The notes under the pieces were generated by a model. The model had not been told where the DNA came from. It did no database searches and saw only the letters and a list, made by a program, of their open reading frames with translations. DNA of 4,940 bases from a virus. Taxonomy: Duplodnaviria > Heunggongvirae > Uroviricota > Caudoviricetes. Within the stretch, counting starts at the first letter, position 1; every line of letters starts with the position of its first letter. A program made the position numbers and the translations under genes. Shown here piece by piece: positions 857 through 4,940 of this stretch. Location of the stretch: the IMG/VR virus record IMGVR_UViG_2913177423_000007. One strand, given 5' to 3'.

Positions 857-886
857 CGGGCGCCAGAAATGGCGCCTTTTTTATTT
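857..886 (+). terminator. Rho-independent terminator-like hairpin between the J-like gene and stf
   Basis: GGCGCC (859-864) and GGCGCC (871-876) form a perfect 6-bp GC stem around a 6-nt loop AGAAAT, followed by TTTTTTATTT (877-886). It lies 20 nt after the upstream stop codon. Confidence 0.6.
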
Positions 887-897
887 GTGGAGTGAGT

Positions 898-3273
898 ATG
901 GCAGTACAGATTTCAGGTGTGCTGAAAGATGGTGCGGGAAAACCAATACAGAACTGCACTATTCAACTGAAGGCAAAGCGTAACAGCACCACGGTACTGG
1001 TGAACACGGTGGCCTCTGAAAATCCTGATGAAGCCGGGCGTTACAGCATGGATGTTGAGTATGGCCAGTACAGCGTCACCCTGTTGGTTGAAGGTTTTCC
1101 GCCTTCACATGCCGGGACCATTACCGTCTATGAAGGTTCCAGACCAGGTACGCTGAATGATTTTCTCGGTGCCATGACGGAAGAGGATGTCATGCCGGAG
1201 GCATTGCGTCGTTTTGAGGAAATGGTGGAAGAAGCGGCACGCAACGCCGAAGCCGCCTCTCAGAGCGCAGCGGCGGCAAAGAAATCCGAAACTGCAGCGG
1301 CTTCATCGAAGAACGCGGCGAAAACCTCAGAAACGAATGCAGCTAACAGCGCACAGGCGGCAGCGTCCTCGCAGACTGCATCGGCAAACTCCGCGACAGC
1401 AGCCAAAAAATCAGAAACCAACGCGAAAAACAGCGAGACAGCCGCAAAGACGAGCGAAACCAACGCAAAGTCCAGCCAGACGGCAGCGAAAACCAGCGAA
1501 ACGAATGCCAAAGCCAGTGAAACTGCGGCGAAAAGCAGTCAGGATGCAGCAGCTGAAAGCGAGAGTGCGGCGGCCGGTTCTGCGACTTCAGCAGCCGGAT
1601 CAGCAACTGCTGCGGCTAACAGCCAGAAAGCTGCGAAGACGAGCGAAACTAACGCAAAGTCCAGCCAGACGGCAGCGAAGATCAGCGAAACGAATGCTAA
1701 AGCCAGTGAAACTGCGGCGAAAAGCAGTCAGGATGCAGCGGCCCAAAGCGAGAGTGCCGCAGCTGGTTCTGCAAGTGCGGCTGCTGCTTCTGCCACTGCA
1801 GCAGCCAACAGTCAAAAAGCAGCAAAAACCAGTGAAAACAACGCAAAGGCGAGCGAGACTGCGGCGGCTAACTCGGCGAAAGCATCCGCTGCAAGCCAGA
1901 CGGCTGCAAAAGCAAGTGAAGACGCAGCCAGAGAGTATGCAAGCCAGGCTGCGGAGCCGTATAAACAAGTTTTGCAGCCGCTTCCCGATGTGTGGATACC
2001 GTTTAACGATTCACTGGATATGCTTGCTGGCTTTTCGCCTGGTTATAAGCAAATAACTGTAGGTTATGATGTTATTAAAATGCCATCCGATAAGGTTGTT
2101 AGCTTCAAACGCGCATCAGGTGCAACATACATTAATAAATCAGGAGTATTAACCGTTGCTGAAGTTGACGAACCGCGATTTGAACGAGAAGGTTTGCTGA
2201 TTGAAGGACAAAGAACCAACTATCATCTTAATTCACTTACACCATCTAAGTGGGGAGCTACAACAAGTGTAACTATAACAGAAAGTGGTGTTGATGAGTT
2301 TGGCTTTACTTATGGGCGGTTTCAAATAAAGGACGAAAAAATTGGGACAAATACGACAATGAATATCGCTGCGGTTTCAGGAGGAAGAGGTGTCGATGTT
2401 ACTGGAACTGAAAAGTATGTTACAACATCATGTCGTGTAAAAAGCGATAGTGCTAATATACAATGTCGTATAAGATTTGAAAGATATGACGGGTCCGCAT
2501 ATTTTTATCTGGCAGATGCATATCTTAATATAACAGATATGTCCATTAGAAAAACGGGAGGAGGGGCTGCAAGAATAACCGCCCGAGCGGAGAAAGAATC
2601 TAATGGATGGATTTATTTCGAGGTTACATATCAATCTGAAGCTATTGATAATATGGTTGGCTCTCAGATCCAAATTGCTCCACCTGTTTCACCTGGAACT
2701 TATTTGGGCGGGGAATATTTGGATGTTACGACACCACAATTTGAAGGCGGCTCATGCGCATCATCTTTTATCATTTCCGATACAGTTGCATCAACGCGAG
2801 CAAGCGATATTGTTACATTGCCTTGCAAAAATAACATGACCAGCAAACCTTTAACCTGCATGGTTGAAGTGAATAAAAATTGGTCTATAGCACCAAATTC
2901 CGCGCCTAGAATTTATGATATAACAGGATTTAAAACAAAAGACGACGCTTTTGTTTTTGCATTCAGAAATACAGCAGGTAGTGTAGGAACTCCATATGTT
3001 CAATTTGGTAATCCAATATCATTTCCACCTGGAAATTACCCAAGAAAGATTATCGCTGTATATAGAATAAAAAGCGATGGCAAGTTTCAGGCTGGCTGCA
3101 ATGGGGTTTTATCAACACCAGCATCAACAACGTGGAAGAGTGTTAATGGTGCTACAGGTATAAGGATTGGAGGTCAGACTACAGCCGGCTTACGTCATTT
3201 ATTTGGTCATATCAGGAATTTTAGAATATGGCATAAAGAATTAACCGATGCGCAAATGGGAGAGGTAATATAA
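898..3273 (+). CDS. stf: Side tail fibre protein, 791 aa: lambda Stf-like N-terminal region, Ala/Ser/Thr/Lys-rich repetitive shaft, divergent AT-rich C-terminal distal region
   Basis: The N-terminus MAVQISGVLKDGAGKPIQNCTIQLKAKRNSTTV...GRYSMDVEYGQYSV...GFPPSHAGTITVYE...PGTLNDFL closely matches my recollection of lambda Stf (MAVKISGVLKDGTGKPVQNCTIQLKARRNSTT...). The following KTSETNA(K/R)SS repeats are also as in lambda Stf. ATG at 898 is preferred over the track's GTG at 892 because GGAG at 889-892 gives a 5-nt spacer. Stop is TAA at 3271-3273. Confidence 0.9.
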   Translation: MAVQISGVLKDGAGKPIQNCTIQLKAKRNSTTVLVNTVASENPDEAGRYSMDVEYGQYSVTLLVEGFPPSHAGTITVYEGSRPGTLNDFLGAMTEEDVMPEALRRFEEMVEEAARNAEAASQSAAAAKKSETAAASSKNAAKTSETNAANSAQAAASSQTASANSATAAKKSETNAKNSETAAKTSETNAKSSQTAAKTSETNAKASETAAKSSQDAAAESESAAAGSATSAAGSATAAANSQKAAKTSETNAKSSQTAAKISETNAKASETAAKSSQDAAAQSESAAAGSASAAAASATAAANSQKAAKTSENNAKASETAAANSAKASAASQTAAKASEDAAREYASQAAEPYKQVLQPLPDVWIPFNDSLDMLAGFSPGYKQITVGYDVIKMPSDKVVSFKRASGATYINKSGVLTVAEVDEPRFEREGLLIEGQRTNYHLNSLTPSKWGATTSVTITESGVDEFGFTYGRFQIKDEKIGTNTTMNIAAVSGGRGVDVTGTEKYVTTSCRVKSDSANIQCRIRFERYDGSAYFYLADAYLNITDMSIRKTGGGAARITARAEKESNGWIYFEVTYQSEAIDNMVGSQIQIAPPVSPGTYLGGEYLDVTTPQFEGGSCASSFIISDTVASTRASDIVTLPCKNNMTSKPLTCMVEVNKNWSIAPNSAPRIYDITGFKTKDDAFVFAFRNTAGSVGTPYVQFGNPISFPPGNYPRKIIAVYRIKSDGKFQAGCNGVLSTPASTTWKSVNGATGIRIGGQTTAGLRHLFGHIRNFRIWHKELTDAQMGEVI
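1260..1930 (+). repeat. Low-complexity coding repeat region (the Stf shaft) with roughly 7/14-residue periodicity
   Basis: Translation is dominated by reiterated motifs such as KTSETNAKSSQTAA, KTSETNAKASETAA and KSSQDAAAESESAA. The reverse strand stays open here only because of GCN-rich codons. Confidence 0.8.
1441..1818 (+). repeat. In-frame tandem duplication, 2 x 189 bp (63 codons each): copy 1 at 1441-1629, copy 2 at 1630-1818, with a degenerate partial third copy from 1819 to about 1866
   Basis: Direct alignment in the sequence: gccgcaaagacgagcgaaaccaacgcaaagtccagccagacggcagcgaa... at 1441 against gctgcgaagacgagcgaaactaacgcaaagtccagccagacggcagcgaa... at 1630. The first ~110 nt of each copy are near-identical. 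Differences are mostly synonymous third-position changes. Confidence 0.85.
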
Positions 3274-3554
3274 TGCGAGATTTAATTATCAAATTCACAG
3301 ACAAGGCCGACTTTTCGGCCTTTATGGATAGCATTGGTTATTATGATGACGAGATGATGCAGAACGATGTTCTCATTGATGTAATAGGTGACGTATACAA
3401 AGAAACAGGCGAACTTACTGAAGATGGCGAGCCGGTATGTGTTAAGGAAGACGGATATTTTGTAAACGTGCGCATCATTAATGATTCGCAAATATCGTCA
3501 TTATTCGATGAATACGCGGTTGCTGTTGAGCATCAACTTCGTGGCTGGATGTGA
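3273..3554 (+). CDS. Hypothetical small acidic protein, 93 aa, translationally coupled to stf; function unknown
   Basis: Its ATG at 3273-3275 overlaps the stf stop TAA at 3271-3273 (TAATG). GGGAGAGG at 3258-3265 is a Shine-Dalgarno sequence 7 nt upstream. The protein is Asp/Glu-rich with no predicted transmembrane segment. I recognise no family and see no resemblance to lambda Tfa. Confidence 0.6.
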   Translation: MRDLIIKFTDKADFSAFMDSIGYYDDEMMQNDVLIDVIGDVYKETGELTEDGEPVCVKEDGYFVNVRIINDSQISSLFDEYAVAVEHQLRGWM

Positions 3555-3563
3555 GGAAGAAAA

Positions 3564-4604
3564 ATGGCTACATCGACAGTAATTCCTGATGACATCAAAA
3601 CGCTAAAATCCGATGTTAGCAAATTAAAAAACGATCAAGGAAGCTACGTAACAAAATCATATGTAGACAGCAAAAATGAAACCGTTAATGACTGGTCTGC
3701 TGCATGGTATCAGCAGGTACTGCCAACTAGCGGAGCTATATTTGGGCGAAAACTTCGCTCAACTCACAGGACGGCAGGTGTTGAGGATGCGTATTGCGAA
3801 CTATACCTTAAAAAATGGATAGACAGCCCAGGGAACGCAATGGCGCGCCTTAACCTGAACGATAACGGTGAAAATATTTGCTGGGATTTTACCAACCTTT
3901 ACGGCGGAACAATGATCTTCCCTGGTACTTCAGGTTATCTGAAAATGGGGAACTGTCTCATGTCGTATGGTGTGCGGGGAAGTAACGCGCTTATTAAGTT
4001 TGATAATACAGACACATTACAAATCAAATACGCTAATCATGGGTCAACCATGACATTAAACACACAGGGAACCGCTCACGCTGGCGTAACAACTCGACTA
4101 TGGGGCAATTCTAGCCGTCCGGTTGTTTATGAAGTTGGCGTAGATGAGGCTCTGTATATGTTCTACGCACAGAAAACTACCAGCAATACCTACGAATTAA
4201 CGGTTAACGGCGCGTGCAATGCAAGTGCATTTAATCAAGGCTCTGACCGGGATCTGAAAGACAACATTCAGGTGATCGATAATGCAACTGACCGCATCCG
4301 TAAAATGAACGGCTATACATACACGCTTAAAGAAAACGGTATGCCCTATGCTGGTGTCATTGCACAGGAAGCTCTGGAAGCCATCCCCGAAGCCGTAGGG
4401 TCTATGATGAAATATCCAGACGGTGGGAGTGGATTAGATGGAGAAGAAGGTGAACGGTATTACACTGTAGATTATTCTGGTGTTACTGGCTTGCTTGTTC
4501 AGGTAGCCAGAGAGTCAGACGACAGAATAACAGCACTGGAAGAAGAAAACGCAGAATTAAGACAAAGGTTATCTGCAATTGAGGCGGCGCTTGCGTCTAA
4601 ATAA
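3564..4604 (+). CDS. Short tail fibre/tailspike-like protein, 346 aa, with a C-terminal peptidase S74-type intramolecular chaperone autoproteolytic domain
   Basis: ATG at 3564 has AGGA at 3554-3557 six nt upstream. The C-terminal region reads ...NQG-SDRDLKDNIQVIDNATDRIRKMNGYTYTLKENGMPYAGVIAQEALEAIPEAV...RITALEEENAELRQRLSAIEAALASK. This matches the S-D-x-R-L-K ... GxIAQEλ..λPEAV signature of the chaperone domain of phage K1F endosialidase and T5 L-shaped tail fibre, and ends in a coiled-coil-like tail. Stop is TAA at 4602-4604. Confidence 0.8.
   Translation: MATSTVIPDDIKTLKSDVSKLKNDQGSYVTKSYVDSKNETVNDWSAAWYQQVLPTSGAIFGRKLRSTHRTAGVEDAYCELYLKKWIDSPGNAMARLNLNDNGENICWDFTNLYGGTMIFPGTSGYLKMGNCLMSYGVRGSNALIKFDNTDTLQIKYANHGSTMTLNTQGTAHAGVTTRLWGNSSRPVVYEVGVDEALYMFYAQKTTSNTYELTVNGACNASAFNQGSDRDLKDNIQVIDNATDRIRKMNGYTYTLKENGMPYAGVIAQEALEAIPEAVGSMMKYPDGGSGLDGEEGERYYTVDYSGVTGLLVQVARESDDRITALEEENAELRQRLSAIEAALASK
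4242..4601 (+). other. Predicted S74 intramolecular chaperone domain (residues 227-346), with putative catalytic Ser227 (nt 4242-4244) and Lys232 (nt 4257-4259)
   Basis: SDRDLK is encoded by tct gac cgg gat ctg aaa at 4242-4259, with the Ser-to-Lys spacing of five residues recalled for the endosialidase dyad. The downstream GVIAQEALEAIPEAV block fits the family. Self-cleavage would leave a mature protein of about 226 residues. Confidence 0.65.
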
Positions 4605-4610
4605 TATTAA

Positions 4611-4633
4611 GGGGCCGAGCGCCCCGTTTTATT
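4611..4633 (+). terminator. Rho-independent terminator after the S74-domain fibre gene
   Basis: GGGGC (4611-4615) pairs with GCCCC (4621-4625) around a 5-nt loop CGAGC, followed by GTTTTATT (4626-4633). It starts 7 nt after the stop codon. Confidence 0.6.
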
Positions 4634-4646
4634 GGGTAGGATGAAA

Positions 4647-4940
4647 ATGGATATAACACCTTTCCTTCATGCGCTTTGTGCTGTGGCTGCGCAGCTACTG
4701 ATTGGTCTTTTTACCGGGAACTGGGCTTACGGAGCGATAGCCGGTTGTACGTTCTTCATTGCGCGTGAACACACCCAGGCAGAATATCGCTGGATTGAAA
4801 TGTTCGGGCATGGCAAGCGGATTAACATGCCGTGGTGGGGCGGTTTTGATCCACGCGCGTGGGATGTAGCAAGCCTGATGGATTTTTCTGTGCCGGTGGT
4901 GGCGTGTCTGCTGGTCTGGGTATTTATCCGTTCAACATAA
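4647..4940 (+). CDS. Small hydrophobic protein of about 97 aa, predicted integral membrane protein of unknown function; possible moron or accessory gene
   Basis: ATG at 4647 is preceded by AGGA at 4638-4641 with a 5-nt spacer. An in-frame ATG at 4641 is an alternative; the track's TTG start at 4632 lies inside the terminator T-tract and is unlikely. Hydrophobic stretches ITPFLHALCAVAAQLLIGLF, WAYGAIAGCTFFIA and FSVPVVACLLVWVFI suggest 2-3 transmembrane helices. Stop TAA is at 4938-4940, the last three bases of the window. GC is about 50-60%. Confidence 0.55.
   Translation: MDITPFLHALCAVAAQLLIGLFTGNWAYGAIAGCTFFIAREHTQAEYRWIEMFGHGKRINMPWWGGFDPRAWDVASLMDFSVPVVACLLVWVFIRST

Follow-up and report, generated by a model that had tools for sequence, protein, structure and literature searches.

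A short S74-domain fibre as the third gene of a widespread side tail fibre cassette in a lambdoid phage

How might a tail fibre protein that has no domain for attachment to the tail be fitted to a virion? The question is raised by a gene for a 346-amino-acid (aa) protein at nucleotides (nt) 3564..4604 (+ strand) of a 4,940-nt stretch, hereafter the window, from IMG/VR virus record IMGVR_UViG_2913177423_000007 (Caudoviricetes). An earlier reading, made from the sequence only, had described the product as a compact fibre with a self-cleaving S74 chaperone domain. It had proposed docking onto another virion protein, plausibly the distal region of the side tail fibre Stf, encoded upstream, or the product of a 93-aa open reading frame (ORF93) lying between the two genes. 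We found that the fibre is the third gene of a conserved, widespread and exchangeable cassette made up of the Stf distal module, ORF93, and an S74 fibre with a short N-terminal anchor. With a probability of roughly 0.7, we consider that the side tail fibre has two parts and that the protein is its distal or branch subunit.

The fibre gene has an ATG start, encodes a precursor of 38.0 kDa and follows ORF93 after a gap of nine bases; direct reading of the sequence placed a ribosome-binding site, GAGGAAG, at 3553..3559 (+). The PHROGs family phrog_4563 covered residues 1-346 of 346, and the RefSeq name of the product is 'tail fiber domain-containing protein'. The 346-aa frame was intact in hundreds of genomes. 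The ratio of non-synonymous to synonymous substitution rates (dN/dS) was 0.09-0.25 against six homologues, with the lowest values in the S74 domain. The gene is real and under purifying selection, carries an S74 domain with its catalytic dyad, and is strictly linked to the Stf distal module. Searches of the 346-aa protein with Pfam, NCBIfam and PHROGs found no tail-attachment domain, in agreement with the sequence-only reading.

The S74 intramolecular chaperone domain forms the last 120 residues of the protein (aa 227-346; nt 4242..4601, +). Pfam PF13884 (Peptidase_S74) matched aa 227-278 with an E-value of 3.4e-14 and 53.3 bits, above the cut-off of 22, and the profile search thus bore out the S74 signature that had been recognized by eye. 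Both of its motifs lay where they had been placed: SDRDLK at aa 227-232 (nt 4242-4259) and GVIAQEALEAIPEAV at aa 264-278 (nt 4353-4397). The catalytic pair is Ser227 (codon nt 4242-4244) and Lys232 (codon nt 4257-4259), and S227, D228, L231 and K232 were invariant in an alignment of 44 homologues. The spacing of the pair (S+5) equals that of Ser1264 and Lys1269 in T5. A helix predicted at aa 304-345 closes the domain at the C-terminus and corresponds to the terminal coiled coil proposed earlier. The family profile matched trimeric coiled coils as well as the chaperone region of S16 gp37 (6f45, E 4.7e-9).

T5 pb1 is cut at Thr1263|Ser1264, with Lys1269 as the general base; the serine departs with the chaperone, and the receptor site is exposed only after cleavage (PMC4690869). 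As pb1 is cut N-terminal to its Ser1264, the predicted cut in the 346-aa protein falls at Gly226|Ser227 and would give a mature chain of aa 1-226 (~24.9 kDa) and a released domain of 120 aa, the same sizes as had been suggested from the sequence. By this analogy autoproteolysis of the 346-aa protein would be expected. T5 pb1 and the K1F endosialidase resemble the fibre in their C-terminal chaperone of ~120-133 aa, Ser...Lys (S+5) dyad and trimeric coiled coil, and their chaperone cuts itself off N-terminal to the serine after correct folding of the trimer, unmasking the tip (PMC4690869). They differ from it in being single, long, self-attaching proteins, whereas the S74 fibre of the window is short and separate. 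The domain ahead of the cleavage site also differs, consisting here of T4 gp34-like repeats and not of the pb1 bullet domain or a triple beta-helix.

Predicted secondary structure and profile matches delimited a beta-rich fibre body at aa 37-226 (nt 3672..4241, +). The body comprises a variable block (aa 41-160), which is probably the specificity determinant, and a conserved module (aa ~165-226) immediately before the cleavage site. The conserved module resembled the T4 gp34 repeat, with profile matches to 5nxh, 5nxf and 4uxe at E 5e-8 to 9e-8. Alignments to single-chain fibres extended over much of the protein: aa 7-339 aligned with 334-623 of the lateral fibre of ChristophMerian (Nonagvirus) at 38% identity, aa 84-337 with the C-terminal end of mEp460 Stf, and aa ~150-340 with lateral-fibre tips of T5-like and rV5-like phages. 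Homology to single-chain fibre ends, T4 gp34 repeats and S16 gp37 marks the protein as a standard fibre tip with its chaperone, split from the shaft and fitted with an anchor. Longer relatives are named for a 'Pyocin knob' domain; this assignment was rejected, as neither NCBIfam nor Pfam gave such a match in the 346-aa protein.

Alignment and a motif scan identified the anchor as aa 1-17 of the fibre, MATSTVIPDDIKTLKSD (nt 3564..3614, +). Its consensus, M-x-T-x-T-x-I-P-x-D-I-x-x-L-K, precedes otherwise unrelated fibre bodies; the corresponding peptides are MVTKTVIPTDITKLK in Gp24 of IrisVonRoten (574 aa) and MTTYTNIPQDITKLK in ORF135 of AKFV33 (557 aa). At least four body types stand behind the anchor, of 346, 234, 574 and 557 aa. 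The 234-aa type, found in IdasGreatGrand, has the same anchor and an S74 domain that is just 26% identical. A heptad-like helix was predicted at aa 9-29, overlapping and following the anchor, and the helix after the anchor differed in length between homologues by 21 or 28 residues, that is, by whole heptads. The motif scan ignored ORF93 and returned 80 loci, 79 of them with enough upstream DNA to be assessed. An ORF93 homologue lay directly upstream of the anchor in all 79 of these, there were no stray matches, and the bodies behind the anchor ranged from 227 to 580 aa. We also considered whether the anchor is the docking peptide of phiEco32 gp15 and DT57C LtfB; this was rejected, the N-terminus of gp15 (MARELMPKSGIMMPHVV...) being unrelated.

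ORF93 (nt 3273..3554, +; phrog_1361) encodes an acidic protein of 93 aa, 10.7 kDa and pI 4.05; in the sequence TAATG the stop codon of stf and the start of ORF93 overlap. The dN/dS of ORF93 was 0.18-0.34, and it has ~370 or more homologues. Homologues of 91-93 aa always lay downstream of the Stf distal module and, where a third gene was present, always between the module and that gene. When IMG/VR was scanned for ORF93 with the protein as guide, 80 loci were recovered, and in each of the 78 with downstream sequence an anchor-bearing third gene followed. An AlphaFold2 model of ORF93 had a pLDDT of 85 and was without a solved structural relative. Phage 21 and ev207 keep ORF93 and have no third gene, and its role is therefore tied to the Stf distal module; ORF93 could act in the assembly of that module, or it could form a joint or adaptor. 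Fusion of ORF93 to the fibre by stop-codon readthrough was rejected. The two are in frame here, with a spacing of 291 nt, and the frame relation is not conserved (287 nt in L004, 277 nt in AKFV33).

The stf gene (nt 892..3273, +) encodes 793 aa and was identified by Pfam PF08400 (phage_tail_N; aa 3-133, E 6.6e-67), by phrog_1419 over its full length and by NCBIfam GTA_spike_fiber at aa 436-637. Its middle part is an Ala-rich repeat shaft. The distal module (nt 1975..3270, +) is galectin/LamG-like and was defined by homology to the C-terminus of IrisVonRoten Gp22 and by an alignment of seven lineages. It runs from QPLPDVW (aa 362, nt 1975), at the invariant hinge QPLPDVWIPFNDSLDM (residue 362), to the end of Stf, with the C-terminal motif GGQT..G.RHLFGH.RN.RIWHK.LTD. 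The seven-lineage alignment showed the module to be common to proximal fibres of very different phages, whose N-terminal halves are lineage-specific. A tblastn search found it in 218 phage records, among them lambdoid, T5-like, Nonagvirus, Dhillonvirus, T1-like and rV5-like phages. The two ends of the module are conserved and enclose a variable middle (about nt 2234-3166). We propose the module as a docking platform; it is possibly an additional receptor-binding domain as well.

The three genes were found together in lambdoid phages, the N15-like plasmid prophage PhiR46_1, the Nonagvirus ESCO3, metagenomic Queuovirinae, Dhillonvirus-type contigs (where the trio sits away from J) and T5-like phages. 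The trio was kept down to ~40% identity in the third protein and 39-49% in ORF93. Together with the 79 anchor loci, this persistence across unrelated lineages supports the tie to the Stf distal region and the 93-aa reading frame that had been suspected from the window. ORF93 and the fibre gene were present at ≥80% coverage in 520 of 5,426 complete E. coli genomes and with a weaker match in 1,076, and 18 genomes matched at least 80% of the whole window. Prophages of E. coli 21AR0173 and PSS-04 are examples with exactly the arrangement of the window. Two classic lambdoid phages, phage 21 (L011, 2223-4864) and ev207 (L012, 1924-4880), represent a natural 'minus' variant: they carry the Stf module and an ORF93 homologue (52% identical) and no third fibre gene, and a membrane-protein gene begins 12 nt after ORF93. 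As every assessable anchor has its ORF93 while these two phages do without the third gene, the third fibre is an optional add-on that needs the module, whereas the module can do without the third fibre.

Comparison of the window with related prophages located the joints at which the cassette recombines. Positions 881-3623 were 96.5% identical to an IMG/VR prophage (L079) that then has a different third gene, of 234 aa. Positions 3166-4919 were 92-94% identical to three prophages (L002, L022 and L091) whose Stf variable region is unrelated. Breakpoints lay near nt 2234 and 3166, and they frame the Stf C-terminus, ORF93 and the anchor (nt 3166-3623) as a constant linker, as expected if the three pieces must fit one another. 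Prophages L079 and L080 both switch to the unrelated third gene exactly past the anchor (nt ~3623), and the anchor is therefore a recombination joint.

Mosaicism was also seen within the fibre gene. Residues 121-140 had 68% DNA identity to L002 between flanks of 98-100%, and a second group of alleles was 43-58% identical at aa 41-100 and 87% at aa 121-140. Block-wise mosaicism is thus real on the evidence of comparative alignment. The sequence-only reading had suggested internal mosaicism from GC content, giving about 33%, 52% and 53% for three 60-nt windows; we obtained 33.3%, 51.7% and 51.7%, so that its figures were essentially right. The spread of GC among 60-nt windows (SD 0.067) was within binomial expectation (0.064), and codon shuffling gave p = 0.31. 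Composition alone therefore does not show mosaicism, and the GC argument was rejected while its conclusion stood on other evidence.

The closest described case is that of IrisVonRoten (Bas32, Tequintavirus), where Gp22, Gp23 and Gp24 have the same gene order and tight coupling (PMC11990801). Over 432 aa, the galectin-like C-terminus of Gp22 shared 76.5% identity with the Stf distal module; Gp23 was 42% identical to ORF93. The anchor recurs in Gp24, which also carries an S74 domain at its C-terminus; otherwise only this S74 region aligned (27%). In a 2025 AlphaFold-Multimer study, a T-shaped Gp24 was attached to Gp22, with the galectin-like domain protruding at the C-terminus (PMC11990801). Gp24 is a 574-aa protein with a Gp12-like RBD1 and a T5-like RBD2, whereas the fibre of the window has 346 aa and a single body, in which Pfam, PHROGs and NCBIfam gave no family match to a Gp12-like domain. 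The N-terminal attachment domain of the proximal fibre also differs, being of T5 type in IrisVonRoten and lambda phage_tail_N in the window.

The same trio occurs in AKFV33 as ltpA (ORF137), ORF136 and ltpB (ORF135), with ORF137 37% identical to the Stf module. AKFV33 has a virulent T5-like backbone, and its 557-aa ORF135 has a different body. Its two-component architecture was noted in 2012; ORF137 was detected in virions by mass spectrometry, and ORF136 and ORF135 were not detected among the four gel bands analysed (PMC3326045).

DT57C LtfA/LtfB and phiEco32 gp14/gp15 follow the same principle, in which a second S74 fibre without a tail-binding domain is carried on the first, and genetics has shown that LtfB depends on LtfA (PMC4728585, PMC10713586). 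Docking in phiEco32 is different: the N-terminus of gp15 (~45 aa) is unrelated to the anchor of the window, and gp14 is unrelated to its Stf. These systems have no ORF93-like gene between the fibre genes, and LtfA has its own S74 domain and not a galectin-like end. The branched fibres of DT57C and phiEco32 are an analogue of the cassette, not a relative. Lambda Stf/Tfa occupies the same position after J and shares the phage_tail_N domain with the Stf of the window. Unlike lambda, the window has no Tfa and no gp37-like tip, and the place of the distal half is taken by the S74 fibre together with ORF93 and the galectin/LamG-like module. Searches of ORF93 and of the 346-aa protein in Pfam, PHROGs and NCBIfam gave no match to a Tfa family. 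A report on undetected receptor-binding proteins in Dhillonvirus (PMC12309495) was set aside as not relevant; it concerns the central spike tip and not the cassette.

A working model for the subunit can be drawn from these comparisons. Three precursors would assemble into a trimeric fibre, with the S74 domain at their own C-termini acting as the folding template. In a correct trimer, Ser227, activated by Lys232, would cut Gly226|Ser227; the 120-aa chaperone would then come away, and what stays would be a fibre with an exposed tip and chains of ~25 kDa each. The ~17-residue anchor and the short coiled coil would then plug into the distal end of Stf, at a joint made of the Stf C-terminus and, probably, of ORF93. 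Every side fibre would have two binding activities, the galectin/LamG-like domain of Stf and the tip of the S74 fibre. The ligands are likely to be surface glycans such as O-antigen, since IrisVonRoten overcomes the O16 O-antigen and T5-type lateral fibres bind O-antigen (PMC11990801, PMC4690869).

Docking to the module is supported by the strict linkage, the constant segment at nt 3166-3623 and the published IrisVonRoten model. Several points weigh against a distal or branch subunit docked in this way. We infer cleavage, virion incorporation, the docking site and the ligand alike. For docking, the literature offers a single line of support, the in-silico model of a relative of 574 aa (PMC11990801), whose similarity to the 346-aa protein is confined to the anchor and an S74 region with 27% identity. 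The anchor region is partly like the ordinary shaft heptads of single-chain fibres. ORF93 is not simply an adaptor of the third fibre, given its presence in phage 21 and ev207. An AlphaFold2 monomer of the 346-aa protein had a mean pLDDT of only 64.5 and formed an extended beta-ladder, and a Foldseek search of this model against the PDB found nothing below E 0.02; a poor and uninformative monomer model is expected of an intertwined trimer.

We weighed three other explanations for the gene. The protein might be an independent short fibre bound directly to the tail tip or baseplate, through J or a collar protein, and not to Stf or ORF93. In favour of this, the gene has a ribosome-binding site of its own and its product is a separate polypeptide; separate long and short fibres exist in some phages (PMC11990801). 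Yet the same anchor occurs across unrelated tail tips (lambda-like, T5-like, 9g-like and Dhillonvirus-type), and what those phages share is only the Stf distal module and ORF93, to which the anchor was linked in all 79 assessable loci. This evidence makes direct attachment unlikely.

It is very improbable that the gene is a non-functional relic, the 3' remnant of a single-chain stf left after insertion of the galectin-like module and ORF93. The alignment of aa 7-339 with the ChristophMerian single-chain fibre would fit such an origin, and some prophages have truncated or frameshifted copies (ORFs of 189 and 90 aa). Against decay stand the frame kept intact in hundreds of genomes, the low dN/dS with S74 as the most constrained part, and the invariant catalytic residues; the start and anchor are kept before at least four different bodies, and virulent phages with compact genomes keep the gene. 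The least probable explanation is that the protein serves as a folding chaperone for Stf in trans, replacing Tfa, a role that the annotation of its homologue in ESCO3, 'endosialidase chaperone', would suggest. The gene sits downstream of stf where lambda has tfa, and Pfam, PHROGs and NCBIfam found no Tfa homologue in the window. Known S74 domains, however, act in cis on the fibre immediately upstream (PMC4690869), and here the domain is preceded by 226 fibre residues. No such gene accompanies the same Stf module and ORF93 in phage 21 and ev207, and a Tfa-substitute role is therefore ruled out; nor does the gene stand in place of Tfa, as the sequence-only reading had put it.

An extension of the preferred reading, in which the protein is the distal subunit of a two-part fibre, concerns the connection itself. 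The C-terminal ~35 residues of Stf, ORF93 and the 17-residue anchor may form a dedicated three-part mechanical joint, with ORF93 as a new fibre-to-fibre connector; we put this forward tentatively and consider it more doubtful than the subunit assignment. If true, the joint would let any anchor-bearing fibre (227 to 580 aa) plug onto any proximal fibre in at least five unrelated lineages, and in phages without the third gene ORF93 would also serve the galectin-like domain, as its cap or assembly factor.

As a whole, the window covers the last part of a lambdoid late operon. Its first gene, for the central fibre J, is represented by the C-terminus of the product at 73-837 (Pfam Ig_GpJ_C and Phage_Tail_Tip). 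The interval between J and stf (838-891) is 54 nt and lacks lom, a 600-nt gene present there in the close relatives IdasGreatGrand (L001) and PhiR46_1 (L002). Within stf, the shaft contains a 189-nt tandem duplication at nt 1429-1866 (2.3 copies, 83% match) together with 21/42-nt sub-repeats. Shaft copy number varies among relatives, and IdasGreatGrand has one unit fewer. Directly after the fibre gene is an intrinsic-terminator-like hairpin, GGGGCCGAGCGCCCC, followed by a T-run (4611..4633, +; hairpin 4611-4625).

A small membrane-protein gene, ORF102 (phrog_1443), occupies 4632-4940, with a likely start at ATG 4647. It is conserved and always follows the fibre module, with or without a third fibre gene. 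The homologue in phage 21 is annotated as a putative membrane protein with two transmembrane domains. ORF102 could be a moron-type or exclusion-type gene. Among the matches to the fibre modules were several 'Campylobacter phage' GenBank records (MG0656xx: C12, C2, C11, A140 and others) with rV5-like or coliphage-like fibre modules. These were 38-47% identical to the E. coli proteins described here, and the records may be mislabelled or contaminated.

The S74 fibre and the two-component cassette are real and already known, and would not surprise a specialist. They are ordinary because of the 520 of 5,426 genomes, the RefSeq name, the phrog_4563 family, and the descriptions of AKFV33 in 2012 and IrisVonRoten in 2025. 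The arrangement had been called non-canonical; this holds relative to lambda and fails overall, as it occurs in ~10% of complete E. coli genomes and many phage genera and was already in the literature (PMC11990801, PMC3326045). The window adds to them a distal fibre of short form, with a single body, on a lambda-type backbone.

Side fibres decide to which E. coli strains a temperate phage adsorbs. About 10% of complete E. coli genomes contain the cassette, which virulent phages of T5-like, 9g-like and Dhillonvirus type also have. For host-range engineering, the constant linker of Stf C-terminus, ORF93 and anchor, with variable blocks on either side, offers a natural plug-and-play site, and it would explain how receptor-binding tips move between unrelated phages.

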